From Balanoglossus misakiensis (Eukaryota; Animalia; Hemichordata): 64,000 bases of DNA. Positions 13,201-49,277 of this stretch are shown one piece after another (positions within the stretch are counted from its first letter, which is position 1; each line of letters begins with the position of its first letter). The DNA is taken from assembly GCA_040954595.2 (NCBI GenBank), contig CM082580.2, positions 4,082,783 to 4,146,782 of the forward strand. Reading direction: 5' to 3'. The notes beneath the pieces were generated by a model. It made no database searches and had not been told where the DNA came from. It saw nothing but the letters and a program-made list of their open reading frames with translations. The translations under genes were made by a program, and so were the position numbers.

Positions 13201-14519
13201 CCAAGATCTGTAAAGACTTCACGGAAAATTTCAGAAGGCAGAAAATTATTGGTTTGCCATCACGAAGGTCAGTTGTGTCAAGCTCATGTCTGACTTGGTC
13301 TAAATGTAATTGTGGTGATTCCTTACACTTGACAGGTCAACCAGAAAAAAAAAACCTGCATGGTTCCAATAGCATATCCCACCCTAATTTTCATCAGCCT
13401 AGTTTATGTGAGAATTGGAACAATTGCAAAATCACACTTGATCTAGTGAGTGAGATGTATAGTAATGATACTGTCATCTTTGATACCTGGTTTCATGAAG
13501 GAAAATAATGATCACTGCAACAGTGTAATAAGTTTTTTTTGACAAATTGTAAAAATTTTAAACTGGGGTTGCCAATCACTGGGGTTCTTCTCATTGATTT
13601 ATTTAAATAATGACAAAATTAACAAAATCTAATAGACCTGGTAAATCTGGTTTGTCTTTGAAAGTTTATCATTTGTGACCAAATATGCCAGTGCCAATTA
13701 TTTCAATGTAGTTTTGTTCTATTATTCTAATATATCTGCAATGTTTTACTGCTTCTTAACTGTACACTTTTATGTTTCTAAATGTTTCAGTCTTGAAATT
13801 AACGGTGGTCCACCTGTCATCCCACCCAAACCAGAACGTGGATTCTCAAGATGTGAGTAAACACTTATTATTGCATATGTCTTGTTTCACATGCCGATGT
13901 TATTCTATGGGCTTTCATTCTAATACACCTACGTGTATAATGACTACTAGAAATACTGTAAAACACTTAATTTTCGCGAGCAATAAATTTTCGCGAAATA
14001 CGCGAAAGGCAAAATAGCGTGAAGACTAAAAGTTGCGTAATTTTTTTTTTAAGATAACGATGCAGTGAATGAAATCAGAGCACGCGAAAATTAATACTCG
14101 CGAAACAGTGGCCTCTCTCGATATGGTGAAAATTTCAACTCGCGAAAACAAAGTGTTTTACAGTACATGTAAATGAAAGTCGTCATGGGAGAGTAGTCTG
14201 AGGGTCAGCAAAATGAACTTGGCCTGCTGTGTGTAATCAGGGAAACCATTTTGATAGTTGTTCTGTTTGTTCCCTTGCAGTGGGTAGACGTCCCAAGACG
14301 TCCATGAGTGTCCAGGAGCACGGCATCAGAAGGGAAGAAGTGAACAGAGCGCAGTCAGCTCCGGCCATCAGCCAGACGCTGCGCGCCCTCACCGTCAAAT
14401 CCATCCTGGAGAAACACAGCAGCAAGTACGCGCACCAGAGCAGCACGCCGGCTCTCAACACGGACGGCAAAAAAGTGATCCACAGAAAATCAGCGGCGGC
14501 TAAACAGTCGTGGAGCTGA
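1235..14519 (+). CDS. ANKAR: Ankyrin and armadillo repeat-containing protein, 5'-partial. Exons 1235-1443, 1867-1971, 3966-4379, 8833-9074, 9545-9701, 10567-10728, 11098-11327, 11836-11994, 12531-12648, 12961-13267, 13791-13852, 14281-14519
   Basis: Ankyrin repeats (QTPLLLAASSGALDSVKVLIELGA; NNMIHLAA) followed by many ARM repeats (GGIPALVNIL, GGISPLINLL, GAVKPLVDLL). GT-AG introns, reading frame continuous to TGA at 14517-14519. Confidence 0.88.
1447..1645 (-). mobile_element. Partial reverse copy of family B element in an ANKAR intron
   Basis: Reverse complement of the 11517-11751 repeat (shared GATCCTAGTAGG..GCAGTGGGGTT..GCTGGTATGGGAGGACA). Confidence 0.65.
3232..3317. mobile_element. Small piggyBac-like MITE
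   Basis: TTAA|CCCCTTTCACC...GGTGAAAGGG|TTAA. Partial related copy at ~16360-16445. Another TTAA|CCC..GGG|TTAA element at ~49345-49625. Confidence 0.6.
3611..3836. repeat. Compound palindromic (foldback) element with TAGTCT...AGACTA ends
   Basis: Two adjacent hairpins: 3611-3691 (TAGTATCTAGCCG/CGGCTAGATACTA) and 3692-3824 (AATCTGATTAAAATCAGATGTAAGGAAC / GTTCCTTACATCTGATTTTAATCAGATT). Confidence 0.7.
5809..7645 (+). mobile_element. Helentron-associated non-autonomous element (HINE/DINE-1-like) carrying a central tandem array
   Basis: T-run insertion site; 5' subTIR AGGTCCCAT (5809) with nearby inverted copy ATGGGACCT (5837); (GTAT/GGAT)n microsatellite; ~240-bp tandem repeats; 3' subTIR ATGGGACC (7620) plus hairpin AGTGTC-CTT-GACGCT, then a T-run. 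Confidence 0.7.
6340..7495. repeat. Tandem array of about 5 units, period ~240 bp
   Basis: CA(C/T)CTGT(A/G)ACACCTGC recurs at ~6358, 6596, 6837, 7076 and 7312; units are highly similar. Confidence 0.9.
9095..9423. repeat. Interspersed hairpin-forming repeat
   Basis: TCTCACACTCC ... GGAGTGTGAGA terminal inverted match; its 3' half recurs at ~45220-45312. Confidence 0.55.
11517..11751 (+). mobile_element. Non-autonomous TIR element, family B (TTAA TSD, Kolobok-like)
   Basis: TTAA|AGTGAAGGGGTCGTCGC ... GCAACAACCCCTTCCCT|TTAA. Other copies at ~1447-1645 (reverse) and ~50780-50961. Confidence 0.7.
13956..14163. mobile_element. MITE family C (TA-flanked, Tc1/mariner-like)
   Basis: TA|CTGTAAAACACTT ... 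AAGTGTTTTACAG|TA. Related copies at ~10750-10924, 12039-12245 and 41261-41469. Confidence 0.7.
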
Positions 14520-17124: not shown

Positions 17125-18603
17125 ATGAAGCTGGATTGTGCGTGGTTGGTCCCACCAAAATCGGTAAAAGTTTTCTTATTCGTATCGGTTTTGATTTTCG
17201 TGTTGTTGTTCTTTAATATTGAATCCATCATTTCTGATCAACTGAAAATTGGGACAGGAATAACCTTTACCCGCCTGCCGGCAAGCGAAGTTCCCATGCG
17301 TTTCAACACCACTGCATCTAACCGAGAACATCAAAGAAACAAGACAGGTAATTAGAATTCATATTTTTATTAAGAAAACACTTCAATCTTTGTCGTTTTC
17401 CAATGTAATACTAGTAGTTCTACTCTTGGAAAACCTACGACCTTCTTAAATTATATCTAGCGTTCTAATGTATAATTCATACAACATAAAACACAAACTT
17501 ACTCTGTGGTAATGTTCCCCATACCATCATTGCATGTAAGAATTCTACGTGTCAAACTCAAATTATTATACTTATGTAAATATGAGGTAAATGAATAGAA
17601 CACAGTCGATGGGTTGGATGAGTCTGTTGTATTAAATTATTTCTGTTCCGGGTTGACAGAAATGGTTACTCGTTTAGTGTCCCGTCCAAGCGCCATTGCC
17701 AAAATACGCCTTTTGTGTGTTGTAACAACATCGCCCAAAACAGCTCGCAGCAGGCTGCAGGCAGTGCAAGATACCTGGGGGAAACGCTGTGATATCACTT
17801 TATACGTCAGCAGTGTGTCAAATCCCAACATGTCAATTGTTGGCCTTAATGTCACCGAAGGTTATGAGGAGCTGTGGGGAAAGTCAAAAGCGGCATTTCA
17901 ACATATTTACAATCACTATTTGGATGACGCTGATTGGTTCCTGAAAGCTGACGACGACACCTATGTTGTAGTGGAGAATTTGAAATATATGTTGTCAGAA
18001 TTCACACCAAAAGAGCCTGTATACTTTGGACATCGATTACATCTGCCTAAGACTAACCAAAGTTACATGAGTGGAGGTGGCGGCTACGTTATGAGCAAAG
18101 CGGGACTATCACGTTTTGTGGAACACGGGCTTCATAAAGAGAAACTTTGTGATGAGGGAGAGAAGGGATTCGAGGATGTGCTGATGGGAGAATGCTTAGA
18201 ATTGGTTGGAGTAACTCACGGAGACTCTAGAGACGAATATGGAAAACAGCGCTTCCTGCCACTCAGTCTGGAGTCTTTTGTGATAGGACCATTACGTGGA
18301 TGGATCGTCAGATACGAATACTATCCAACATCTTCGGTCAGTATTGTACATTGGTTTTTGTATTTTGGTTTCAACATTACGAGCAATATTGTTGCCAGTT
18401 TCATGGGCATAGTGCACAACTATTGCAAACTTTTGATACCGTTCGTGTGTAACACAGTCAATAATGACCGCTAAAGTAGCTTGAATGTTTCTGTTTTTCA
18501 GGGCAAAGAGTGTTGTTCCGACTACCTGGTAAGCGCTCATTACATCAAACCGAATGACATGCACATCCTTGATTATCTCATCTACAATGTGAAAGTAGCA
18601 TGA
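17125..18603 (+). CDS. Core 1 beta-1,3-galactosyltransferase (GT31, C1GALT1-family) paralog, ~333 aa. Exons 17125-17347, 17660-18336, 18502-18603
   Basis: Type II TM anchor; TWGKRC, WFLKADDDTY, YMSGGGGY, EDVLMGECL, GKECCS motifs; exon phases consistent. Confidence 0.9.
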
Positions 18604-21973: not shown

Positions 21974-24900
21974 ATGAAGTCACCCACTTTGTCCTTTTTG
22001 TTGTTTATGGTCGCTGTGAGCAAAGCGGCTGCTGTTTGCGAGTCACTCGGCGATATTGTCAGTAGTGAGGCCCGTCATTTCGATGCCAGAGACGCAGTCG
22101 CCGGCTCCGGGGCATGTATGTTGACCTCAGATGATATGATGGTGGCTGGTATTGGAACAAGGAGTTTTCAAAGAGCAAAAGTAGGTCTCTTATGGTACTA
22201 TATATATCGCTTAAGATTTATCACATTCCGTTTCTTTGAACTGAGCAATGGAAACAGGTCGTGGAACTGCACACCCAGACTCCTGGAAGTGCCAAACCTA
22301 AGCGACCTCAACCAGGACAGGTCATGATTAGACACACCGTTTACCCTCCCCCCCCTCCTCTTCTTACCCGGGTTCTTCGATCCTTTCATCTCCAGTTTTC
22401 TTTCCGATTTCTATCAATATAACTTATAGCATTGAATCCCCGAAATGAAAAAAAAAATAGCCTGACGCCTTTGGCCCTGAAACGTTTATGTGACAAACAG
22501 TTTGCTCTGGCATTTTGTAACATCTAACACGGCAAGCCCAAGAGAATTCGCGGCAATTCACCATCTCAAGGTGCACAGCCTACGTCAATTCATTCGTGAC
22601 TAATTCGAACCCCAAGGACACTTTCTACCGTTAAGGAATTTCGACTTGTGTACATGAAGCAACTCTGTTCCTCGGGAAAGAATCGCTGAAGTTACGATCA
22701 GATCAAAGTGGTGTCGCTCGCGTTTGCTTCCTTGAGCAAAGGCAATGTAACCAAGTTTCTAAGGCTATTTGATGGAGCTACGACAGCTACTGGTACACCT
22801 TGTGTTTGAGTGTGATTCTCGAAGATAATTAACGAGCGCTATTGCATACGTCATACGTGTGTTGTGTCATGCAAACTATCTCTGCATCGAGACCATGCCT
22901 TTTATGTAAGCGCTGGAGTCTATTTCTATATTCGCTGAAGTATGTCGTGATGCCCTTTATTGGGCTTGCATATCTTGTCGGGGCACAGAAATCTCCCTGG
23001 TATATCCCTTTGACCAACCCTTTATGTACAGAAAGTCGGAGAATGACTGGCTTGCGATTGTGGTGTGCTCAGAAACAGGACAAAAGAATTCCTTTGTGAA
23101 TTACATCAACGTCTCGATGACGTAAACACATGCACTGCTAACATATGCGTTACAAGCCTCACTAATGACAGACGGAACACAGAGTACATACGACTGACGT
23201 AGCCGTAACTTGTAAATTAAGACACGTAAAACCGATGTCAAAAATATGGTATTTCCTATTGGTACAGTATTGAGTAATTCTTCAGTAAAACTATATAACT
23301 GACGCAAATGTGTTTATAGACGTTGTTCAGATTTTGCCTCCTCATTGGTCACATCATTTTTTGTCTTATATAGGCTTGTGGTGAGTGCTTAGAGGTATCG
23401 GGGCCAAATGGACGCTCCATTACCGTGAAGATCATCGACAAGTGTAATGGATGTGACAGAAATGGTCTTAATCTTAGTGAGGAAGCATTTGAACTTCTTG
23501 AAAGCAACTTTGCTGTCGGTATTATTGATGTCACGTGGAAAGTCGTTCCATGTGCTGTTTCCGGCAATATCAACTACAGGGTATTTATTAATTTATTAAT
23601 TTTATAGAAATTACAGACGGCAAAGTAAATTATAAAAAAAATCTATAAACATAAAAGCTATATATACGAAATATATGTCATGTTCCTTTGTCGGTATTGT
23701 TGATGTCACTGGCTCTTCATACTGTAAACACAGCGTCAACGGCGACTTTGTTCCCTCGCATGAGTTCCGACACACTGGCCAGTTGACCGCAAGTGTCGCT
23801 TTGAGAGTTTTTTTTATTTAAAGTAAAAGTATAACTGTAAATGTTGTTATTCCTGTATTAACAATTTAGTTCAAGGAGGGGAGCTCCAAGTGGTGGTTTG
23901 GTATCCAAGCATGGAATTACCGCTACCCAATCAGGCGAATGCAACTCCAAAGACCAGGGCGTAGTGCATGGATCAACCTGAGGCGGACCAACTACAATTA
24001 CTTCCTGAAACCAGAAAATGTAAGCCGTCTGGACGCGCCGTTTAAGCTGAGATTGACCTCGACCAACGGCCGGGTGGCGGAACAAACGGTTGAGGTCATT
24101 TATGCCAGTCACCTGCAGACGTTGGAAGGAACATCGCAGTTTGCATTGTGCGGGGATGAAGTGGGACCTCCTGAAGGCGATGGCGGTGGTGAAGATAGCG
24201 AGGAGCCTGCAGGCGATGATGGAGATAATGAAGGGAATGAAGATGGGCAAGACGAATCAGAAAATGCTTGCATTGTTGATGAACACATGCAAGCTGGTGA
24301 AGGCACTTACTACACTGGAGCGCCACAGGCGGCCGCCGGAAGTGGCAAGTGCAATTTAAACACTGGAGGAGATCTTATGGTGGGAGCCATGGCAGCAGGA
24401 TTGTGGGAAAAGTCGCAGGTACCATCTAGTTGTATTCATTTCCTTTTCATGATGTTCAACTCAGTCATCGCAGAGACAGGTGAAATAACGAGAGGCGAGG
24501 ACAGCTGAGACGTGACCCTCTACTTTTTCTTTATTTCCAGGTATGTGGCGAGTGTGTTGAAGTGACTGGTCCATATGGAGATAGAATCCATATCAAGATC
24601 ATAGACAAGTGTCCGTCTTGCGCTGCCGGCGATATTGATCTGAGCCCAGATGCATTCCAACAGCTAGCCCTTCTTGCAGAGGGAAGGATAGATATCAGCT
24701 GGCGAGTGGTAGAATGTCCGGTCAGAGGCAACTTCAGGTACAAGTTCAAGGACGGCAGTAGTCAGTGGTGGTTTGGAATTCAGGTGAATAATCATCGCTA
24801 CCCAGTCAGCCGAGTGCAAATGAAGAAATCGGGAGAAGACAGATGGATTGAGATGGAACGGACTAATTACAATTTCTTCCTGAAGCCTAACTCGGCGGGT

Positions 24901-26536
24901 GTCGTCGATGCTCCTTTTGAGATCAAAGTCACGTCAACCAATGGGATGGAAGTGCTGGATAGGATCAGTGCAATTCTTGGCAGTGAGTCACAGTTGCAAG
25001 AAGGGGCGGTTCAATTTCCGCACTGCGACGCCATTGATGACGAGGAGGAGGAGGATGAAGGTAAGGCATCTTTAGAAATATAAACAAAGATGGAAATAGC
25101 GGTGTTGCCAGAGTGGTAGTGACGATGAAACAGGAATCTTGGGAAATAGAAATAGCTTTACCGTTTAAAACTTGTCTACACATCTTTCTAGACTCCTCTG
25201 AAACCGACGGAGAGGACGGTGGCGATTCCGACGTTGGTGGCGTGTGCCTTGTTGAACAACGCGTGCACCATGGAGAAGGAACCTTCTACGGCGCCTCTGG
25301 TGCTGCCGCTGGGGGCGGCATGTGTATGATTAACACTGGCGGCGATCTCATGGTTGGAGCAATGGCCAAACCATATTACAACGATGCTCGAGTAAGAACA
25401 TTTGCTTTATGTTCAGCGTCTTGCTTATAGGCCACATTCATAAAAAGGGGGGTTGGAGGAATCGAGAGTTAGCTAAGGGGGCTTGAAATTTTTGTGGTGG
25501 TAGCTGGAGGTAGGGAATTTCGAAAATTGGTAACTACTGCAAGATAGCATTCCATGGCGTTTCCGTAAGAACCACCAGTACGTAAGTGGTGGTTGTCACA
25601 AAACCACTAATCACGAGCTTACTGTGTGGCTGTATGCTAGATATATAACTCTTACAACACCACGTGACCTATATCCTTGCTACAACAATATTTAAGCAAT
25701 TTTATCCTGGAAAGGAAAACATACCACTGAATTTATGATAATACAACAGGCAGCGTACGTACATAAATTGTCCGAGACCATAATGGAGTGATTAAATGGA
25801 TTTTTGACACATTCTCTTTCAAACGAATATTAATCATGCCCTAATAGGTGCACTGCCCTCCAGTACCTAAAACCAGATTATCAACACATTCTTCGTATGC
25901 TTAGGCAGTATTTACAAATGTACATCCTCTTCTCAACAAAAGCAAATGATTCATACAACGCAGGCTATATTGAAATGACACTGGGGTAGTAATACTTAGC
26001 AGATAAAAAATACTGAAAACTTTAGAAGAGTTATTTGATTTCCCCCCTAGGTATGTGGTGAATGTATTGAAGTAACTGGGCCTTATGGTGATGTGATACA
26101 CATTCAGATTGTAGACCAGTGCCCGGAGTGTGCAGCCGGAGATATCGATCTGAGCGAAGAAGCGTTTATAAACCTCGCTGAGCGTCAAGAAGGGAGGATC
26201 GAAATAAGCTGGCGATTGATCGAATGCCCAGTCTCCGGCGCCTTCAAGTACACATTTAAAAGTGGCAGCACAAAATGGTGGTTTGGTATCCAGGTCGTCA
26301 ACCACCGAGTTCCTGTCGCGTCCCTTGCCGTCAAACCTGACAACCACAACTGGTGGATCGCTCTCCCGAGGAAACCGTACAATTTCTTCGTCAACGAACA
26401 GGGGGTGGTCGACGTGCCCTTTTCAGTACGAATTACCTCAACCACGGGAGAGGTGCTTGAAGACAGAATCACGTATTTTCCAGAAAGCCCTTCCGATTTG
26501 CACGATGGTAACGTGCAGTTTTCCTCTGACTGTTAA
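21974..26536 (+). CDS. Secreted protein with three tandem expansin-like (DPBB + CBM63) modules, ~722 aa. Exons 21974-22180, 23374-23580, 23870-24418, 24541-25060, 25192-25391, 26051-26536
   Basis: Signal peptide; three copies of CGECxEVxGP..I(I/V)DxC..(D/N)LS..AF..G.I...W...CxVxG...Y.FKxGSxxWWFGIQ...YNxF...QF, closely resembling Bacillus EXLX1/YoaJ (recalled, not searched). Acidic linkers between modules; all GT-AG introns in phase. Confidence 0.9.
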
Positions 26537-28280: not shown

Positions 28281-31001
28281 ATGGAGTCTCATAACTTCAG
28301 CTTGAATTGTTCGGAATGGCAGAAAGCGGTGAACGGTTGCGAAGACTCTGGTCATCATCATGATGATGATCGCGATGGTCATGATCACAGCATCATTCGT
28401 GAGTTTAGCAATTGGCTAACGGTGTCATGCATGATTGTTTTATTGGCCGTTTTCTCAGTTGGCATTATTGTCAATGTTTTGGTAATAACGTCAGTTAAAT
28501 ACCAACGCAAACAACAGACTGGGTTATATCTAACAGCTATTCTCTCGTTCGCCTACCTTGTAACCTGTACAACGTGTGTACCCATGGCCGTTGCTGGCAT
28601 ATTAAATCCAGACATCGTGGTCTTCGAATTCTGCCTGGTCCATGAAGCATTGTCATTTTCGACTCTACTATTGACAATATTCGTTACAACTATCATTAGC
28701 GTTGATAGACATGATCTCATCAAGAGGTACCCCAAAAGACTGCTGAATACGGAAAGGATCTTTGGGATCACATCAATGTTTGGCGTTGTGTCTGTTGCTC
28801 TGAGCGTAGGGCCAACCCTGGGACACCTGGTGCGCCAAGGAAAGAATAACCATGGGTGTCATCTGTGGACTAGTCGCGTTGATGACTTTGTTTGGTATTT
28901 GGCATATTGTGTTGGGGTTGTCACTCTGATCTCGCTTATTACCATGTGCATCTGCTATTACGACATCGTTCAAAGAACCATCAAGCACGTGGAACAAACC
29001 CGCTTGACCCTGGGCAGAGAAATCCCGGGGAAAGTGGGAAAACTGAAGGCGAAACACAACAAGGTAGTGCCCTCAGCAGATCTCAATCTGCCTTCATCTT
29101 CTAGTGAAGCACACAATACACCAAGTGCGAATATCAAAGATATGTGTGGGGAGTTCACTCAAGGCAACATATCGACCATAGTTACCGACCCGAGGCCAAG
29201 CCTGGCTGTTCAAGGGAGTGGACACTGCGGCGGAAGAGTGGCGGGGAGCACATCAAAAACACAGGACGTTCATCAACCAGAGGGAAAGCAAACAGGAATT
29301 CGTGCGCGCAACCCTGGCAGGTCACTTGCTGCAAAAACGCATCGTGATCGATTGCACAGAAAGGTTATGAAGACATCTTTCATCATTATATGTACCACGT
29401 TTGCTTTTCTTCTGCAGTGGCTGGTTGTCAACGTCCTGGTTGCTCTGGATCTACCCCCAGGTGAGGAATAATAAATAGTTAATCAGACTGAAATGATTAT
29501 TAATGCATCAGTGTCCGAGCACTCTGCTAATTTATTTTCATCATCCACGGTGATATATTTGAAAGAAACGCACCAAACTAAAAAAAAACTATCAATCGCT
29601 GTAAAAATCGTTATCTCAAGGCCATCAATTTTTCACATAATGAATCAAACTGAAAATAATATCCCAAATGCCGATTTTTGATGGTTTTACGCGCCTACGT
29701 AAAATTTACAAACTTTCATTTGTGATTGTGATATTTAATTCTCAACGGATTTGCCATACACTGTCACCGACGTCATAATCATTCCCAGTAGAATAGGCCT
29801 AAGAAGGGATGACAGCATATGTCGCTGATCTGACAGAGCATCATTCTTCAGTTGGCGTAATTATTTCGTCTGCATTGCAAAGACTGCAAATACACATTAA
29901 TTACGGCTATTAGCACAATGTATTTAGATATCATATTACTGATGAAATCTATACACAGCTGGAAACAACGCCTCGAAGGACAGCGTACCTGCAGAACAAT
30001 AATTACATTAGCGTTTAATTACTGTGATGGCTCGTTTTATAAGCTATTAAAAGTTTCCGCTATACAGATTTGTTAAAAAGCTATGTGTAACGATTCAGTT
30101 GACACTTATAATTATGTAATCAATGTAGTGATGCATTAACGATTGATTAATTCAAGTCGCTTAAAACATGCCAATTAACTAAAGCTCATTTAAAATGTCT
30201 TAGCCATTAAACTGCAGTCGAGCTATTAAAGGCACGCGTAAGCTGTAACTTTTGGGATAATTTTCATAATTTTTGTTTCACACTGCACTACCATTAGTCC
30301 ATGCAGATGAAGGCAGTGAACTATACACAAGCATTATAAACCCTAAATATGAGTGCATATGCAAGTTTTAACCAGATAAATAATAAAGCTTTGCCGCAAG
30401 CGATTATGGCCGCCACCGTGGGAAAATGAAAGAAACAATGAAAATGTCGCATTTCCGGTTGTGAAACTTCATAAACAAAACATGATCTCATCCACTTGAG
30501 CTCATGGAAGTAAATGTACACCACTGAGACATCAGATTTTCATTTTTCATTGCAATATTGCACTTTTTTAAAAATGTCAGGAATTTTCGTTTTTCTTTAA
30601 TTTTTGGCCATTTTGTCATCAATAAGTGTTGAGCTTGATATATTATCATGAAATAGCATTTAATAGATATAATTAAAAGCATATATGAGATTATTTAAAA
30701 CATTGATTTTTTATCCAGTTGCAGCTTACGTGCCTTTAACGACCCGTGCGACGACGACGATGACGATGATGGGTATTATTATTACCATTATTATTGTTAT
30801 TTTTTTCTTTCAGGAATACCGCCTGAACTGCGAGTTTTTGCCATGGTACTCTCATACATACCTGCAGCGCTTGATCCAATTATATGCATATCTGCAGTTC
30901 CAGCCATCCAACGGCACACGAAGGATACCCTTTCGAGAGTCTTCGGAGGGAAACTTTGTAAGTGCGTCAGTAAAGTCGACAAGCCTGATGAAGTTACTTG
31001 A
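28281..31001 (+). CDS. Rhodopsin-class orphan GPCR, GPR22-like, ~455 aa. Exons 28281-29460 and 30814-31001
   Basis: Seven hydrophobic segments; CLVHEA..ISVDRHD (cf. GPR22 CCFHEA..LDRYD); long ICL3. Exon 2 supplies TM7 (ALDPIIC) and a helix-8/Cys tail. Confidence 0.8.
30230..30735. mobile_element. Non-autonomous TIR element in the GPCR intron (TTAA TSD, Kolobok-like)
   Basis: TTAA|AGGCACGCGTAAGCTGTAACT ... AGTTGCAGCTTACGTGCCT|TTAA. Confidence 0.7.
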
Positions 31002-31378
31002 AAATCAAATCGACACTTTATTATTGCACTTGCTAGGTGTTTTAACTGTGTGTTTCAATATTTATATCCGATTAAAATATGTGCAGGTAGGAATTACATC
31101 TTCAGGCCCTTGTGTGGGTTATTGCTATCATATTATATCAGCAATTGTTTTTGTGGCATATCAGTGTCATTTTCTTACCGAAACGGCGTCAGAAAGAGAA
31201 ATTACGATCGTGAACCAACATGGCGACGATGAATGTAAACACGAGCAGCCGGGATCCAGCCTGTAAGGTACCTTGGTACTAGTGGTAGAGTCGTGTGCGC
31301 GTGTGTGAAATGACCGTGCATATACACATTAATTGATTCTTGGGTTTTCATCATTTAAAAAACCTTCCCTTCACATGC

Positions 31379-31501
31379 TGACGTCATGCCATGAAACACT
31401 GATTTTAATATCAATAGCACCCATTAACACCTGTGGATTCATTGCCTCCTCGGTCAATACGTTGCTGCAACGTTTTTTCATGCCACCGTTGTTAAAGTGA
31501 G
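31379..31501 (+). promoter_or_regulatory. Putative U1 snRNA promoter: PSE-like element (31483-31501) and upstream CRE (31379-31386)
   Basis: CCACCGTTGTTAAAGTGAG lies at -61 to -43 from U1 +1 and resembles the TCACC....TNAAAG PSE consensus in sequence and position. Perfect TGACGTCA at -165. Confidence 0.6.
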
Positions 31502-31543
31502 TATGCTCGCACTCTATAAGGCCAGGGAAGACTGTCTTCGGGT

Positions 31544-31572
31544 ATACTTACCTGGCACAGGGGTTAACCGTG
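31544..31572 (+). ncRNA. RNU1: U1 snRNA gene, 5' fragment (nt 1-29), interrupted
   Basis: ATACTTACCTGGCACAGGGGTTAACCGTG is the canonical U1 5' end (5'-splice-site recognition sequence) plus the 5' arm of stem-loop I. Confidence 0.92.
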
Positions 31573-31787
31573 TGCTGAGGTGTTCTCATACTCGCTACCT
31601 GTGAAGCGACATCGACATTTAAAGAAGAAAAGTTGGAAGACGTCCGTAGTGCTTTTGTATCTTGGATTGTTCCATTTATAGATCCTTGATTGGGACTTTC
31701 CCACTTGGAACAGGCCGCAGGGCCTGGTGAAGGTAAATCCTTCGTTAGTTTCTTTTTTTCGTTTATTTTTCAGTGGTGGAAGGTGCC

Positions 31788-33248
31788 ATGACCACCCCCC
31801 GACCTTCCCCACGTAAAGTTCGCACGCTTTTACTTTCTTTTGATACCGTTGTTGAGACTAGAGAGGTTTTTAAGGTTCTTCAGGATGCCGGCATTACAGT
31901 CGACAGTCACTTAGAAGCTGTGCAGCGTTTGATAGGAAATAAGTTTGATGTTACCTTTAGACAAGTGGCACAGAAACGCATTTATGAACAGAAATTGCGA
32001 GAAGTTGAGAAATTGTCAGTTCATTCATATGATGACACGGTCATTGTTACGGCGGTCTATGTCGATAATGAATTGGACGACAATTATGTCCAGTACATTT
32101 TGAAACAGTATGGGGAGGTCTTAGCCTCGCGAAAATGTGTCTACCAGGAGCACCCCAGCGTGTATAACGGAATTAGGCAGTACCGTATGAAAATAAAAAG
32201 CAACATCCCCTCTGTTCTACGAATAGCAAATAGAAATGTTAGTATTTATTACTCAGGGCAAACAAGAACTTGCTTCAAATGTGGTAAAAACGGCCACATA
32301 AGTAAAGAATGTAAAGATCTCAGATGCTACAAATGTTTGGAAAACGGGCACACAGCGGACGTGTGTGAAAGTCCAGTTAAGTGCACTATCTGTGGAGAGC
32401 AGGGGCACGTTTTCCGTGCATGTTCACTTTCTTTTGCGAAAAAAGTTTCGCTCACGCATACGTGGCAAGCGGCATCACCTGCTGAGACAGAAATAGACAA
32501 GGCCAGTAGTGAGGTCACCCCGTCTGCCGAGCAACATCATAGCGAACCAATCACCGACACTCTGTCTGACATGGAGATCACACCAGCTCAACGCGAACGT
32601 GAACACTCGGTTGATAGCGACACGTCACCATCTGAAGCGGCAGTGGGCAATGATGACGTGGCACATAAAAAGAAACGCTCCGCGCCATCTTCTATCGATT
32701 CGGAGTTAGATAATAAAGTTTTTAAAGCGCAGGAATCGACGCACAGCGACATGGCTAGTGATAGACTAGTTATTGACGAGGGGGAGGGGACCCTTTCCCC
32801 TGCGTCTGCAAATTCAGATAGGTCAGAGTCCGCTCATGAGTCTAGTTCCCCTGTGGAGGATCCCGTTCCTGATGCTGCGTCTCCGCCAGTATCCACCACT
32901 AAAGAACCTACTACCACCCCTGCATCTAGCGGCAAATCTGACCAGTCAAAGGTTCGCCGCGCTCAGAATTTGATGCGTAATTGTTCACTGCACAATTTAC
33001 AGTCAGTCAACATTCCATGCAGCTCAATGTCCAATCTAAATTGCGATACGCAGCGCGTGGGTTGGCAATCCCTTACAAGTCACTGTAGGGATAAACATAA
33101 GATCAAGGCCATCAAAATCCCTTGCATTGTCAGCCACAAGTGTGGAACTTTGAACAATCCCTCTGTTTGGGTGGACCATCTCTGCAAGATGCATCCCACG
33201 TTTGTTTTGAAGAAGGGGCTTAATTTCTTTGATAGTTATTTCTTGTAA
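31788..33248 (+). CDS. Retrotransposon ORF1 (Tx1/ZCCHC3-like nucleic-acid-binding protein)
   Basis: GCCATGA start at 31788. NGIRQYRM..IPS motif, three CCHC knuckles (CFKCGKNGHISKEC, CYKCLENGHTADVC, CTICGEQGHVFRAC), disordered Ser-rich region, Cys/His-rich C terminus. Confidence 0.9.
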   Translation: MTTPRPSPRKVRTLLLSFDTVVETREVFKVLQDAGITVDSHLEAVQRLIGNKFDVTFRQVAQKRIYEQKLREVEKLSVHSYDDTVIVTAVYVDNELDDNYVQYILKQYGEVLASRKCVYQEHPSVYNGIRQYRMKIKSNIPSVLRIANRNVSIYYSGQTRTCFKCGKNGHISKECKDLRCYKCLENGHTADVCESPVKCTICGEQGHVFRACSLSFAKKVSLTHTWQAASPAETEIDKASSEVTPSAEQHHSEPITDTLSDMEITPAQREREHSVDSDTSPSEAAVGNDDVAHKKKRSAPSSIDSELDNKVFKAQESTHSDMASDRLVIDEGEGTLSPASANSDRSESAHESSSPVEDPVPDAASPPVSTTKEPTTTPASSGKSDQSKVRRAQNLMRNCSLHNLQSVNIPCSSMSNLNCDTQRVGWQSLTSHCRDKHKIKAIKIPCIVSHKCGTLNNPSVWVDHLCKMHPTFVLKKGLNFFDSYFL

Positions 33249-33251
33249 TTT

Positions 33252-36200
33252 ATGGTCACTTCTAGATCTTTATTTCTCATTATGTTTCTGTCTTTTTGTT
33301 CATTAAATGTTAACGGTTTACAAGATGGGAGAAAACGTAACACACTTTTTCAGTATTTGAGGGATTCGGGGCACGATATTATTTTTTTGCAGGAGACTCA
33401 TGTCTCATCGAATAAAGATATTGATTTATGGAATAGAGAGTGGGGAGGTTCGGGTTATTGGGGGCTTGGCACAAGTGTTAGTTGTGGGGTGGGAATCCTT
33501 TTCAAGAAAGGGGTTGATTTTCATTTTCAAAATATCAGGACAGAGGAAAATGGACGTGTCATTGCTGGTACCATAGAAAAAGAGGGCAAACGTTTTCATT
33601 TATGCAATGTGTATGCCCCCAATGTTAGCAGTTTGAGACGCCAGTTCTTTAATAATTTGCCTAATTATCTTTCGAGTTCTCTGCCTATTATTTTGGGAGG
33701 GGATTTCAACTGTGTTGAAAATCCGTCGGACGTGTTTGGTGGTTCAATTCCGAATACTTCCCGTTTTATTGGGGGAAAAGAGTTGCTTTCTATTTGCAAA
33801 GATTTTGATATTCATGATTGTTGGAGAGCATCCAACCCAACTGAACAGTCTTTTACGTGGCGAGATCGAAGTAATAGTGTTGGTAGTAGAATTGATAGAT
33901 TTTATACTCCTACTTCTTTGAAATGTATTTCTAGTATTTCCTCATGTGCTCTTTCTGACCATGACGCCGTTTCTATTTCTATTCAAATGTCGAATTCCAG
34001 GGTAAAGGGTCCTGGCTATTGGAAATGTAACGTGAGTCTTCTAGATGACGACTTGGTCTCTTGTATTGAGCATCACTTCAAAAATTGGCTTACTTTGCAG
34101 CCTGGCTTTTCGTCGAAGAGCGCATGGTGGGACATGGTAAAATCTCGGGTAAAGTCCATCATTAAGAATAGAGCAAGAGCAACAGCGCTCAAGCGTAAAC
34201 AGAAAATTGAAAATTTACAGGCCGAATTATCCCGTCTCACTTCTCTTTTGAATGAGGGCGACAAGTCCAAACAAGTGCTAGTTGAGTACCATGCAACCAG
34301 GGATAAATTGAGGGATTGCATTACTCAAAAGACCCTTGGTACCAAAATTCGCTCTAGGGCTAAACTCTTGGACGAGGATGAAAAATGTTCGCACTACTTC
34401 TTTCAAAAGGAGAAACAGCGTGGTAAGCGCAAATTAATTTCAAAAGTCATCGACAGCAGTGGTAATGAGCATACTGACCAGCGTGATATGTCACATTGCC
34501 TACGTGACTTTTTCGGCAAGCTATACAGTAGTGAAGGTCACCTTGATACAGAGGAGCAAACGTTCTTCCTTTCCCAGGTGAAGTCTAAACTGTCTTCAGA
34601 TTCCAGGCAGAGTTTAGAAGCCCCTCTGACTTTGGATGAGCTTACAATGGCTCTTAAAAATATGCCCAATAACAAAACACCGGGTAGCGATGGGTTACAG
34701 AAAGAGTTTTATATTGCTTGCTGGCATTTTATTGGTCCGTCTTTTCTTGATGTGTGCAATGAAATTCTTGATCAGGGTTATCTTAGTGACACTCAACGTC
34801 ACGGAGTCATCACCTTATTGAGCAAGTCTGTTAACTCTACGGACGACCGCGCCCAATATTTTCCAGAAAACAAACGGCCGATTTCCCTACTCAATGTCGA
34901 CTATAAGATCATAGCAAAAGTCCTCAGTCACAGGTTAGGTTCTGTCATGCCTGGTATTGTCAATACTTTTCAAACATGTGGGGTGAAAAACCGGTCAATT
35001 CATGACAATCTTACAACTTTGCGAGACATCTGCCATTTTGTTAACCAAAGGAATTTACCTTGTGCATTTGTGTCTTTAGATCAAAGCAAAGCTTTTGACA
35101 GAGTCGAATGGGATTTTCTTTTCAAAACTTTAGAAAGAATGGATTTTGGGCCAATTTTTACAAAGTGGTTACGCATTTTGTACACTGATATATCTAGCTC
35201 TCTGCTTGTTAATGGTTTTCTTTCTGATAAATTTACTTTATCCAGAGGAGTAAGACAAGGTTGTCCTTTGTCCCCGTTGTTGTTTGTTTTATTTATGGAG
35301 CCTTTCGCTGCAGCTGTCCAGAATGATAATTTAATTAAGGGTTTTTCTATTCCAGGGAGAGGCTCTAATGAGTGTAAGCTTTTTCAGTATGCTGATGACA
35401 CAACTGCAGTTATTACTAATGACAAGTCATTCAACCGGTTAACTACTTTGTGCCAAAGATTTGGGTTGGCTTCTGGAGCAAGGTTGAATTTATCGAAGTG
35501 TAAAGGGCTCTGGCTAGGGAAATGGAAGGGTCGCCAGGACACCCCTATGGATATAAAGTGGTCTTCCGAAAAACTGAAAATCAACGGGATTTGGTTTGGA
35601 AATATCAATATGGGAGTGGTGAACTGGAAAGAACGTATTTCTAAATTTTGTGATCTTGTTACTAAATGGCATTCCAGGCGTTTGTCTATAATTGGCCGGG
35701 TGTTATTAATTAATACGGTGGCTGCCCCGATTTTGTATTATGTAGCTTCATTATTCCCTTTGCCTCTCTGTCTTCTGAAAAAAATCAATCTGTCCCTTTT
35801 TGGGTTTCTTTGGGGTCCCGGAAAGTGGCAGTGTGTCGCCAGGAAAACTATGTACCTTCCGACTGAAAAGGGTGGGTTGGGTCTCGTTAACATTGCTAAC
35901 AAAGTTAAGTCTTTACTGTTGCATAATATTCTGCGTAATTCTGTAGAGATGGCCAAGCCGTGTGGGTCTCTATTAAGAGCGTATCTTTCCACCAGTCTAC
36001 GTTCGTTCATCCCAGAAGTTTATGATAATTTTACCCCCCATTTTCAATCTGCTCCTAAATGGTATACTAGCTTTTTGTTTGACCTTCGTCGTCTTCAAAA
36101 GATTGCTACCCCTGGAACAATATGGCAGATTCTCACGTCCGCTCAAATCTATGATTTATTGCAATCAGTGGAAGTAATCCTCCCCAGGGTGGTTCATCTT

Positions 36201-36761
36201 GACCCCCAAAGAAATTGGATTTCAGTTTGGTATAATGTCCACTTGGACTGTCTTGATAACAAATTGAAAGAACTGTCATGGAAGTGTGCTCATGACGTCA
36301 TCAAGACAAATTCTAAATTAAGCGGGTGGGCCTTTATGAATATTTCGGCTAAGTGTCCTAGGAAAAATTGTAGTGGGAGAGAGACCCCCCGACATTTGTT
36401 TTTGGACTGTCCCCTTGCACGTTTTTTGTGGGCCTGGGTAGATTCCCAATTGTTCAGGTTGTTTGGCCCGTTGGTACAGTCTACTTGGGATTTAATTTAT
36501 TACAGTCTGCTACCAATAGTCACAGACACCCAGAAAAAGAAACTGGCTCTGCTGCTTGTTAATCTAACGAAGCACTTCATTTGGTATACTAGGTGTATGG
36601 CTGCATATGAGTCCGTTAATTATACGCCAGACTCGGCTCTCTTGCAGCTAAAAAATATTATTACATACAGAATTCAGACAGACCTGCAAAGAAAAGATTC
36701 AGAGACCTTGAAAAATGTTTGGGCCCTTCTGTTCGTGAAGAATGACAAGATCCGGCTGTAA
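33252..36761 (+). CDS. Retrotransposon ORF2: APE endonuclease + reverse transcriptase + C-terminal Zn motif
   Basis: SLNVNGL, LQETH, NVYAP, GGDFN, SDH (APE); KTPGSDG, RPISLLNVDYKI, KAFDRV, GVRQGCPLSP, YADD (RT); CPRKNC..ETPRHLFLDC. Confidence 0.96.
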   Translation: MVTSRSLFLIMFLSFCSLNVNGLQDGRKRNTLFQYLRDSGHDIIFLQETHVSSNKDIDLWNREWGGSGYWGLGTSVSCGVGILFKKGVDFHFQNIRTEENGRVIAGTIEKEGKRFHLCNVYAPNVSSLRRQFFNNLPNYLSSSLPIILGGDFNCVENPSDVFGGSIPNTSRFIGGKELLSICKDFDIHDCWRASNPTEQSFTWRDRSNSVGSRIDRFYTPTSLKCISSISSCALSDHDAVSISIQMSNSRVKGPGYWKCNVSLLDDDLVSCIEHHFKNWLTLQPGFSSKSAWWDMVKSRVKSIIKNRARATALKRKQKIENLQAELSRLTSLLNEGDKSKQVLVEYHATRDKLRDCITQKTLGTKIRSRAKLLDEDEKCSHYFFQKEKQRGKRKLISKVIDSSGNEHTDQRDMSHCLRDFFGKLYSSEGHLDTEEQTFFLSQVKSKLSSDSRQSLEAPLTLDELTMALKNMPNNKTPGSDGLQKEFYIACWHFIGPSFLDVCNEILDQGYLSDTQRHGVITLLSKSVNSTDDRAQYFPENKRPISLLNVDYKIIAKVLSHRLGSVMPGIVNTFQTCGVKNRSIHDNLTTLRDICHFVNQRNLPCAFVSLDQSKAFDRVEWDFLFKTLERMDFGPIFTKWLRILYTDISSSLLVNGFLSDKFTLSRGVRQGCPLSPLLFVLFMEPFAAAVQNDNLIKGFSIPGRGSNECKLFQYADDTTAVITNDKSFNRLTTLCQRFGLASGARLNLSKCKGLWLGKWKGRQDTPMDIKWSSEKLKINGIWFGNINMGVVNWKERISKFCDLVTKWHSRRLSIIGRVLLINTVAAPILYYVASLFPLPLCLLKKINLSLFGFLWGPGKWQCVARKTMYLPTEKGGLGLVNIANKVKSLLLHNILRNSVEMAKPCGSLLRAYLSTSLRSFIPEVYDNFTPHFQSAPKWYTSFLFDLRRLQKIATPGTIWQILTSAQIYDLLQSVEVILPRVVHLDPQRNWISVWYNVHLDCLDNKLKELSWKCAHDVIKTNSKLSGWAFMNISAKCPRKNCSGRETPRHLFLDCPLARFLWAWVDSQLFRLFGPLVQSTWDLIYYSLLPIVTDTQKKKLALLLVNLTKHFIWYTRCMAAYESVNYTPDSALLQLKNIITYRIQTDLQRKDSETLKNVWALLFVKNDKIRL

Positions 36762-36886
36762 CGTATGCTCTGGGCACCATACTCCTTGGGGCTGTAATGG
36801 CCAGCAGCGTCACAATAAAGTTTTTGTTGTCCTTCATGACAGAAGTGTTCCCACACCACCGCAATATTCATCATTATGCCAGTTTC

Positions 36887-37000
36887 AAAAAAAAAAAAGG
36901 CGGGAAAAAAAGGAAAAAAAAGAATGGAAAAAGAGGGGAAAAAAAGGAAAAAAAAAAAAAGGAAAAAAAAAAAAGGGAAAAAAGAAAAGAAAAAAGAAAA
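36887..37000 (+). repeat. A/G-rich purine tract in the retrotransposon 3' region
   Basis: About 114 nt of An runs punctuated by G, followed by a T-rich stretch. Confidence 0.85.
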
Positions 37001-37335
37001 CAGTCTTTGCTCTAATAATTTGTTGTACGCAAATCAGTTGTAGTTCTGTTTTTATGTTTCCTACGTTGATATTTGTATTATTTAGTTATCTTTCCTTAAC
37101 GTTTTATTTACTTTTCGCATTAAACTTTTATTTGGAGATGGCAGGGGGAATCGTACTCCCTTGAGCCTCGAACCAGCGTGGTCTGGCCTGCCTGAGGACT
37201 CCAGTTGAATAATTTTAGTTCCTTTATTTTTTAGATTAGAATTTTCATGTTTCCAAAATGAAAAGAGCATGAAATGTTGAAAATGTAATTAGGGTTTTTG
37301 ATTTGATTTAGTTTTTATTTCCTCAAACCAAAAAG

Positions 37336-37463
37336 AGGCGGTTCTTCCAAGGCGAGGCCCGCGCATTGCACTCCGCGCGGGTTGACCTTTGCGATCACCC
37401 CAAATGTGGGTGACTCGGGTGCAGAATTTATGGTAGTGGGGGACTGCGTTCGCGCTATCCCCT
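37336..37463 (+). ncRNA. RNU1: U1 snRNA gene, 3' fragment
   Basis: AGGCGGTTCTTCC (SL-I 3' arm), CATTGCACTCC (U1A loop), CCCCAAATGTGGG (SL-III), Sm site AATTTATGG, terminal stem GGGGGACTGCGTTCGCGCTATCCCCT. An A-rich 3'-box-like AAAGAACAGA follows. Confidence 0.95.
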
Positions 37464-37846
37464 TTACATCGAAACAAAGAACAGAACAACTATTTCAATT
37501 CTTCATTGGGAATCTAAATTACTTTGTGCTCATTTAATTAATAAAAGTTGGTTGTGAACAGTATATATACTGTAAATGTCTACCTATTAGGAGAATTTAT
37601 CAAATTTAGGCCTACGCGACATTTTAATCAGAAGTCATGTTTTCATTTCTACTCAATCATTTTTAGATCAACCATAAAATGCAGTCTGAACACTCTGGAA
37701 TTCGCAATAACAATTTTTTATTAACAAAAAAAAATCAAAGTAACACAGACAATTGATGACAATTGTCGTATTGTTGTACTTGTACATAGGATCATTTTCA
37801 CAGAGTTTATGTTCACAGAACAGTTTACTCCAATGCAGCTCAGAGA

Positions 37847-47092: not shown

Positions 47093-49277
47093 ATGGCTGT
47101 GAAAGCCACAGTTGTTGCGACTACATTTGTCGTTGGGCTCGCGTTTGGTGCGACATTCGCGACTCTCTTTTTCAGATTCACTTATGACACGCCGGGTGCG
47201 AGATCGAAAGGTCCTACGCGGAAGTTTGCGGTATCAAAAATTCTGGACGACGATCCATATGGACATGTTTTGGTCGACGAAACAAACGAGGTGTCTACTC
47301 AAGAATCGGACCGCTTTCAAGAACACACAGATGATGGAGTGTCTTACAGAGGTAAATACCATGATTTGACGGCATGTCAGCGCTCTGTTCGAATGCACAT
47401 TGCGTATGAGCCCGGGTGTACGGTAGGGGTTAAATGTATACGGTCACCTCCAATTTATACGCCCGTATATGTCAGAAATAGCGTTTGAGTGTTCTAAAGA
47501 ATTTTTGGTGGCGCTCTTTTTGTCGCGTGTGCCACCCATTGAAAATCTGTGATTGGCTAGATCTAAATTTACCATGGTTATGCTGTAGCTATATTTGCAT
47601 AGGTGACCATGTACCTTTAATGGTTGGGGTCGGCTTGACCCTGGGGCATTTCAAGTCGATTCCTAACCCTACCCCACGGCCCTGGGCTACAACTATTGCA
47701 GTTAGGGTGTATGGCAATCTGGGCTGACGATTTAGTGAAAAATGCGGGTACTACAGTCTGCACTGTAATTCACAAAATCAGGCATGTTGACCATAACATG
47801 TGTAGACTCTCTCAGAGCTCCTCTCGCTGCCTATGCCAGCGAGAGGTGCTTCTCTGAACGGTTGAGGGCACGTCAGTGTGCAGCATGTAAAGAGCCCTGT
47901 AGCGAACCGTGGGCTGTGAGAGAGTCTAGTTGACCATGCAACCTCGAGCAACCAGTTCATATACATACTTTGATCACTTCAAGCTGATTCAATGTAACTT
48001 TTCTTCTTCCCATCTTTGCACAGGAGAAAATGCGGTTGCAGCAGAATTAAAAAGTAAGGTCAGAATTCTGATCTGGGTCGCGACGCATCCCACAAACAAA
48101 GACACTAAGTTGAAGCACGTGAAAGCCACGTGGGCCAAACACTTCGACCCAGACCAGGTCATTTACATCAGCTCCCAAGAGGACAAAACCTTCCCCATCG
48201 TCGGAGTGAAGTTGGGAGTCCCCGAGGGGAGAAACGCGCTGTGGGCCAAAACTCGGGCGGCGTTCACGTACCTGTACGACAATCACTTGGAGGATGCCGA
48301 CTGGTTCATGAAGGCGGACGACGACACCTACGTCGTCGCGGAAAACCTCCTGTATTTCCTGTCGGACAAGGACCCCAGTGAACCCCACTATTACGGACGG
48401 AGGTTCAAACCGTACGTCAAGCAAGGCTACATGAGCGGCGGCTCGGGCTACGTCATCAGCAAAGAGGCGCTGAAACGAGTCGTGACGCAGGCCTTCCCGG
48501 AAAAGACCCAGTGTAGGGAGGCAACTTATGCCGGGGCCGAGGACGTCGAAATGGGCAGATGTTTGGACAGCGTCGGCGTCTATGCCGGCGACAGCAGAGA
48601 CTCTTTGGGACGGGAAAGATTCCATCCGTTTGTACCGGACCAACTTCTGGTGCCGAACACTTTACCAACGAATTTCTGGTACTGGCAATACATCTATTAC
48701 AAGACTCCACAGGTAAGTTGCAACTCGCTCAAGATCTACATTTCAAGTAATTCTAATATACTTACACAGTGGGGGGGGGGGGGATTCACCCCCTGTTGAC
48801 AAGTTGGCACCCCCTAGCAATTTGTCAAGGGGGGAAAAACCCAGACCTTCTGTACCAATGCCTGTAGCAGGCAAGTTCATGCAACCAAACACTCATAACC
48901 ACATTCTGCAATTTGAAGAAAATAGTAAATTTTGTATAAATGTGTAAATTTTGGACACAAGCAGTTTTTTTCAGTAAGAAATTTACTAGGTACATTATAG
49001 TCAGTGCAACAACATAAAAACAAAAAATACTTGTTCAGAAGAAAACTCTGTTGAGTATGGATATCTGGGCGTTTGCCTTACGCCAACTTACAATCAAAAT
49101 GATATTTTCCTTTTTTTGTTGTTTCAGGGGATAGAATGCTGCTCTGACCATACAATCACATATCACTATGTTGGACCGAATTTGATGTATTCATTAGAGT
49201 ACATGATATACCACATGCGACCATTTAGTGTCGAGATAGGAGATACTTGCCCTGCAGTGCAACAAGCAAAGTCATAA
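47093..49277 (+). CDS. C1GALT1: Core 1 beta-1,3-galactosyltransferase (T-synthase), ~365 aa. Exons 47093-47351, 48024-48712, 49128-49277
   Basis: KVRILIWV, HVKATWAK, LWAKTRAAF, DADWFMKADDDTYV, GRRFKPYVKQGYMSGGSGY, AEDVEMGRCL, GDSRD..RFHPF, ECCSD, YHMRP. Confidence 0.92.

Follow-up and report, generated by a model that had tools for sequence, protein, structure and literature searches.

A Tx1-Type Retrotransposon Divides a U1 snRNA Gene of Balanoglossus misakiensis at Loop I and May Be Transcribed from the U1 Promoter

RESULTS

A LINE lies within loop I of a U1 gene

The window, a 64-kb (64,000-nucleotide) stretch of DNA from Balanoglossus misakiensis, contains a U1 snRNA gene divided by a non-LTR retrotransposon (LINE) (Table 1). 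Position +1 of U1 falls at 31544, similarity to U1 stops at +29 (31572), and the gene restarts at about 37336, where Rfam gives a U1 match (37325-37464, 89.2 bits). The 5,763 nt between the two halves are inserted in sense to U1, and the halves still pair with each other across the insert (6/6 and 4/4 pairs in stem I, 4/4 in helix H). In five intact animal U1 genes, loop I is 10 nt long and reads GATCAxxx(A/T)G; in the window, the left half retains the initial G and the right half the final AG, and 3 to 7 bases are missing. Compared with these five genes, the junctions between U1 and the element have no target duplication but a loss of target instead. The end of U1 similarity and the loop comparison bear out the original prediction that the element begins 29 nt after the U1 start. 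Because the PSE core is correctly positioned and both a TATA-like hexamer and a 3'-box-like motif are present, the locus very likely once functioned as a U1 gene, and its core promoter very likely remains intact.

A GPCR gene ends upstream on the same strand; its single match at an E value of ≤1e-20 comes from the acorn worm Ptychodera flava (57% identity). A perfect 6-bp inverted repeat occupies -17 to -5 (31527-31539), directly before U1 +1. Elsewhere, the window holds an expansin-like ORF, here in an animal genome, that matches the DPBB and expansin C-terminal families of Pfam (24484-25080), two Fringe-like/galactosyltransferase ORFs (17599-18474 and 47930-48799), Armadillo-repeat exons (8736-9392 and 12759-13508), five copies of a 240-nt tandem repeat (6355-7549), and a long tetranucleotide microsatellite (53308-53760).

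Table 1. Features of the split U1 locus, in window coordinates
Feature	Positions	Strand	Description	Basis
GPCR gene, last exon	30814..31001	+	Stop codon ends at 31001; ATTAAA at 31071; about 540 nt upstream of U1 +1	tblastn with Ptychodera flava homologue P0121; translation
CRE octamer	31379..31386	.	TGACGTCA, at -165	
PSE-like element	31483..31501	+	-61 to -43, reads CCACCGTTGTTAAAGTGAG; ACC core at -59	Positional match to other animal snRNA promoters
TATA-like hexamer	31515..31520	+	At -29	
U1 snRNA, nt 1-29	31544..31572	+	5' splice-site-binding end, 5' strands of helix H and stem I, first G of loop I	
Junction bases	31571..31582	+	Predicted pairing with U1 nt 6-16, covering the ACCU core	Folding
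Tx1-type (L1 group) LINE	31573..37335	+	5,763 nt (5.76 kb), sense to U1	
Splice-like signals	31733..31773	+	Donor-like GT at 31733, T7 at 31753-31759, pyrimidine tract and AG; would-be 41-nt intron	
ORF1	31788..33248	+	486 aa, three CCHC zinc knuckles	
ORF2	33282..36761	+	1,159 aa: AP-type endonuclease, reverse transcriptase (YADD), C-terminal zinc motif	
A/G run	36814..37000	+	AATAAA at 36814; 114-nt A/G run at 36887-37000, A12 first, then GGCGG	
T-rich segment	37001..37335	+	335 nt; rest of 3' UTR or short second insert	
U1 snRNA, remainder	37336..37464	+	End of loop I to 3' end: stem-loops II-IV, Sm site	Rfam RF00003
3'-box-like CAAAGAA	37475..37481	+	About 12 nt past the U1 end; shared with 2/5 other U1 loci (L099, L100) at similar distance	

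The inserted element is intact

The domain layout of the element is that of the Tx1 clade (L1 group), with CCHC knuckles in ORF1 and an AP endonuclease, a reverse transcriptase, and a zinc motif in ORF2. Both frames are open, and the catalytic motifs of ORF2 are intact. The element occurs once within the 64-kb window. Its closest protein relative is 44% identical, and an exact-sequence look-up of ORF1 and ORF2 in a sequence collection returned no match. Near the 3' end, the GGCGG that follows A12 repeats the letters found where U1 resumes and holds the only C of the 114-nt A/G run. This stretch (36887-36905) may mark the true 3' end of the element together with a short target duplication, in which case 36906-37335 would be an older tandem insert; a long 3' UTR is an equally possible alternative, and the U2-inserted relative L029 also has an internal A-rich run. 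The T-rich segment has no Rfam match near the gathering score and no repeat of ≥40 nt elsewhere in the window. Neither the 5' UTR (z = -0.38) nor the GC-rich 3' island (z = -0.44) shows unusual RNA structure.

The 215-nt 5' UTR contains no TATA box, GC box, YY1 site, or Inr-DPE pair, although missing motifs are weak evidence. Rfam detects no 5' self-cleaving ribozyme, nor do our own HDV-like and hammerhead descriptors, which were run without a positive control. A GAAGACG motif in the 5' UTR was considered as a family feature and rejected, as it is absent upstream of ORF1 in relatives.

Splice-like signals are present before ORF1. The acceptor-like AG ends 14 nt upstream of the ORF1 ATG and has the top acceptor score among 23 elements on our own crude scale. 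The working mRNA might then be spliced at this acceptor from an upstream start, by read-through from the GPCR gene and a donor at -47, and lack the U1 leader altogether. The acceptor tract has 18 pyrimidines in 20 positions; no other site of this kind occurs in the element, and it is one of about three on the plus strand of the window. A donor-like GTGAGT occurs at 31497, downstream of the GPCR stop (31001) on the same strand. Yet such a route would be specific to this locus, the GPCR RNA could stop at the ATTAAA at 31071, and good acceptors are no clear family trait (crude scores of at least 16 in 4/23 elements in sense versus 1/23 in antisense). We consider splicing of this kind highly improbable. 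The same counts give no support to a conserved 5'-UTR intron across the family, and 41 nt would be short for an intron.

A probable U1 promoter is retained upstream of the element

We compared the sequence upstream of U1 with nine species-level upstream regions from other animals, five from U1 and four from U2 genes. Three copies of L103 were counted once, L002 and L029 were dropped as too short, and L004 was dropped since its +1 could not be placed. The U1 loci were found by scanning genome contigs with the U1 3' motif, which returned 10 stretches from 5 contigs with 11 U1 sites; these contigs are animal DNA within bacterial bins. In one such bin, U1 genes lie in a 2,716-nt tandem repeat (L100/L101), the unit of which also has a 219-aa ORF on the opposite strand that is histone H1-like by eye.

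The PSE of Pol II snRNA promoters is centered about 50 to 55 nt upstream of the start (PMC1761439). An ACC trinucleotide occurs at -60 to -55 in 8/9 independent U1 and U2 upstream regions (the exception, L006, has it at -66) and at -59 in the window; this range was picked post hoc, yet it agrees with the published PSE position (PMC1761439). On a profile built from the eight regions, the score of the window is reached by 2.2% of 10,663 six-base blocks (P of about 0.02). The PSE-like motif that had been predicted at -61 to -43 is therefore present at a position common to most of the other animal promoters, and we are moderately confident that it reflects more than chance. The human PSE consensus (PMC5493778) matches the window at 8/12 positions, as do 33% of 30-base blocks; we rejected it as proof of a PSE when taken alone, this being a chance-level match.

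The same comparison was less kind to the CRE at -165. The predicted octamer does remain upstream of U1, but there are six copies in the window, with a chance of about 3% per 300 nt, and none lies within 250 nt of +1 in the nine other snRNA upstream regions, three of which are shorter than 250 nt. Thus, of the motifs proposed earlier, the PSE core recurs in other animals whereas the CRE does not, and a role of the CRE in the U1 promoter is unsupported. The TATA-like hexamer at -29 was not part of the original prediction; a TATA motif at -38 to -20 is found in 3/9 of the other species-level regions. The distal elements of vertebrate snRNA genes include octamer, Sp1, and Staf sites (PMC5493778); no octamer or GC box was found in the 400 nt upstream of the window U1. 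Promoters of snRNA genes are external to the gene (PMC4494074 and PMC5493778), and the PSE position and profile fit the original view that such a promoter would outlast the insertion.

Relatives of the element adjoin U2 and 5S genes

Searching metagenome contigs with an alignment of ORF2 turned up 333 relatives; we retained the best 80 and examined them with Rfam and motif scans. Among these best 80 of 333, a U2 gene adjoins the end of the element in eight cases, all eight in sense; two more lie beside 5S genes, two have other U2 matches (L022 on the opposite strand, L048 far upstream), and none is inserted in U1. Searches of viral contigs gave 0 matches and then 3 and 14 chance matches, none of them to U1, and no ORF2 relative.

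In Keno-like U2-inserted relatives, the distance from the U2 junction to the ORF1 ATG is often short (28 nt in L001 and L002, 24 nt in L006, 10 nt in L016, and about 31 nt in L004), and two U2-inserted relatives have long UTRs (344 nt in L029 and about 920 nt in L013). The join falls at U2 position +29 in L016, +26 in L029, and about +46 in the others, and L013 has a target duplication of 7 to 10 nt. The 5' UTR of L029 contains a perfect 5' splice-site consensus, located about 140 nt upstream of the ATG of ORF1. One relative inside a 5S gene (L064:179-272) has about 27 nt before its ATG. Promoters of 5S genes are internal and hence cut by an insertion within the gene; since L064 is equally short although its host promoter is broken, a short UTR is no proof of promoter borrowing.

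We built two trees that include U2- and 5S-inserted relatives at 31 to 35% identity and are without named Repbase families. In both, the window element falls outside the U2-inserted elements, which are scattered over several branches, and its nearest rows are P0001, P0002, and P0003. One tree, though not the smaller of the two, places the window element on a supported branch with a Tx1-type element that adjoins a 5S rRNA gene (L007:1-110), whose ORF1 is 30% identical to that of the window.

A second Tx1-type element occupies the same position in U1

A second intact, two-ORF Tx1-type element ends in U1 loop I (L105, minus strand, from about 7153 down to 50; also L106). It comes from animal DNA within a bacterial bin, and its ORFs, of 504 and about 1,160 aa, are both open. 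Its AATAAA and A tail lead into the 3' side of loop I, about 2 nt from the junction position in the window. On the 5' side there is a complete U1 with 73 nt of flank, and 158 nt are repeated on both sides of the element; in this one copy, the repeat could stem from a long duplication or from a read-through leader that was carried over. The ORF2 of L105 is 33.6% identical to that of the window and is nested among the U2-inserted elements in the tree, and L008 is a close relative (88% DNA identity). A single clade for the two U1 elements was rejected by the AU test (p-AU of 9e-54; 14 rows and 781 columns under a simple model).

The recurrence of the same loop I spot, in 1 of the 11 U1 sites found, probably reflects targeting, with each of the two families known here from one copy. 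Alternatively, a nonspecific or otherwise targeted Tx1 copy might have landed in U1 by chance and become a silent dead end. This would suit a single-copy element whose best relative is 44% identical and the absence of U1 insertions among the best 80 of 333 relatives. It accords less well with the undamaged ORFs, with a target of only 164 nt, and with an unrelated Tx1 element at the same position in another animal. We regard a chance insertion as improbable.

Transcription could proceed from U1 into the element

The original prediction also held that a transcript begun at U1 must escape Integrator-dependent termination over about 5.8 kb. That hurdle was overstated, because the insertion has shifted the U1 3' end and its 3'-box-like motif about 5.8 to 5.9 kb downstream; promoter-proximal attenuation and T tracts do remain as obstacles. 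No match to the vertebrate-type 3' box consensus lies inside the element. Integrator cleavage in human cells is directed by the 3' box, which is active only behind an snRNA promoter (PMC5493778). Also in human cells, a U7 reporter that lacks its 3' box yields GFP mRNA and protein at high levels, while snRNA transcription is still shortened by T-rich tracts and by attenuation through Integrator (PMC11610936). A T7 run is located at +210 (31753-31759), inside the acceptor-like tract before ORF1. In sea urchins, 3'-end formation on U1 RNA is not known to require coupling to the promoter. Our literature search for mRNAs made from U1 promoters found no paper. A search of RNA sequencing runs with positions 31200-37600 listed no run containing them, which speaks neither for nor against transcription.

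Elements of the L1 group commonly have an internal Pol II promoter. Were this true here, U1 would be a safe multicopy landing site, and transcripts from its promoter would mostly end early and be degraded. A 215-nt 5' UTR could house such a promoter, L064 copes with a short UTR in a Pol III gene whose internal promoter is broken, and both the T7 run at +210 and the attenuation of snRNA transcription by Integrator (PMC11610936) agree with early termination. On the other hand, the 5' UTR has no core-promoter motif pair, L016 has only 10 nt before its ATG, and the clean join with target loss suits a leader carried over from U1. We view an internal promoter as possible but rather unlikely.

The comparative evidence leans toward use of the U1 promoter. 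We favor this reading because the element is full length, in sense, and open in both ORFs behind a PSE core at the expected position; because five U2-inserted relatives have only 10 to 31 nt before ORF1, and all eight U2-adjoining relatives among the best 80 of 333 are in sense; because the 215-nt 5' UTR has neither core-promoter motifs nor a 5' ribozyme match; and because L105 adjoins the same loop I position. Counting against it are the short gap of L064, the long UTRs of L013 and L029, the T7 run, a 5' UTR roomy enough for a promoter of its own, and the lack of U1 insertions among the best 80 of 333 relatives.

The U1 leader is unlikely to read splice sites

A transcript from U1 +1 would carry the splice-site-binding sequence ACUUACCUG, which lies within U1 nt 1-29, as had been proposed. 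A leader of this kind is nevertheless unlikely to read splice sites, because loop I is lost, the Sm site is far away, and the first bases of the element are predicted to pair with the leader. In the predicted fold, U1 nt 6-16 pair with nt 28-39. With 15 nt of the element included, this fold-back is equaled by 1% of window segments and 0.5% of shuffles (600 of each; a post hoc comparison); with 60 nt, 13 to 22% of controls pair as well, and the effect fades with context. In 3/4 intact U1s this folding method hides the 5' end in error, so masking of the leader is a lead only. A fold-back copy arising during insertion could produce the same pattern.

A model for the U1-inserted element

The simplest reading of the layout is a transcript that joins U1(1-29) to the element. 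On balance, we think it somewhat probable that the U1 promoter drives transcription of this intact LINE, yielding a capped U1(1-29)-element RNA that would act as both message and template. Given that snRNA promoters are external, the PSE would set the Pol II start at U1 +1. Transcription would meet the first 3' box only after 5.9 kb, and the RNA would end either at the AATAAA (36814) or where the U1 3' end now lies. Since the leader has neither an AUG nor a nearby Sm site, this RNA would retain an ordinary cap and undergo translation; the first in-frame AUG is that of ORF1, with no short upstream frame before 31788. At a new target, the endonuclease would nick near the 3' side of loop I, and cDNA copied from the U1 leader would then pair with the upstream target half. 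The outcome would be a clean join at +29 with deleted loop bases, as seen in the window; we infer, by analogy with R2 (PMC4494074), that a carried-over U1 leader accounts neatly for both. Finally, the splice-site-binding end would be masked by the first ten bases of the element, folded back onto U1 nt 6-14.

A broader proposal, which we put forward as speculation and consider doubtful, is that Tx1 LINEs have taken U1 loop I at least twice and live there as promoterless “maxi-U1” messages. SNAPc would set the start at U1 +1, the fold-back would silence the splice-site-binding end, the leader would template the 5' join, and the displaced U1 3' end would act as terminator; such messages would also have supplied the U1 heads of crocodile Tx1 elements and SINEU.

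DISCUSSION

If our reading is correct, a natural snRNA promoter makes a 5.5-kb coding RNA, and U1 loop I joins the sites within reach of Tx1 endonucleases. Our literature search found no U1-inserting LINE; Repbase and Kojima's supplementary target figures, which lay outside that search, could list one. The snRNA-targeting elements named by Kojima and Jurka (2015) are only Keno and Utopia in U2, Dada-U1, and Dada-U6 (PMC4640811). A family is regarded as target specific when >20% of its copies lie at one target (PMC4494074). How retroelements inserted in or headed by snRNA sequences are transcribed is described as open, with dependence on flanking promoters named (PMC4494074).

The closest parallel is Keno, a Tx1-clade family with an AP endonuclease that targets U2 snRNA genes; a Tx1 family is also listed at U5 (PMC4494074 and PMC4640811). 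Like Keno, the window element has two ORFs with CCHC knuckles, an AP endonuclease, and a reverse transcriptase, and it is inserted in sense near the 5' end of a Pol II snRNA gene with an external promoter. In contrast to Keno, its target is loop I of U1, it lies outside the U2-inserted elements in both trees, and it has lost target bases where the Keno-like L013 has a duplication. We rejected its assignment to Keno, as its flanks are U1 rather than the specific U2 site and it does not group with U2-inserted elements.

Two other kinds of element are associated with U1. Crocodile Tx1 families have U1 or U2 heads; the U1-headed crocodilian Tx1-Mar families are Tx1-2_Crp, Tx1-2B_Crp, and Tx1-4_AMi, and SINEU has such a head as well (PMC4494074). 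The U1-headed elements are inserted in Mariner or LTR elements, and their heads are ascribed to template switching. These share with the window element U1 5' sequence at the element start, but the U1 piece of the window is still part of its own gene, with the PSE on one side and the 3' part of U1 on the other. Dada-U1A/B, in turn, are DNA transposons with a DDE transposase, found in U1 genes in one orientation; their site, with the duplication GCGAAT/GCGAAC, is in a later part of U1 and not in loop I (PMC3706591; Dada elements are also treated in PMC8869645).

A further precedent is R2, which inserts in 28S rRNA genes and is known to be cotranscribed with its host gene (PMC4494074). If our preferred reading holds, the two share a host-gene promoter that drives cotranscription. 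R2 differs in its restriction-like endonuclease, Pol I host, and self-cleaving ribozyme (PMC4494074), none of which applies to or was found in the window element. Judged by its sequence, U1 is likely a new target variant among the known snRNA-gene-inserting Tx1 elements, and a borrowed promoter is somewhat likely; the idea of such borrowing extends Keno and R2 and introduces no new principle.
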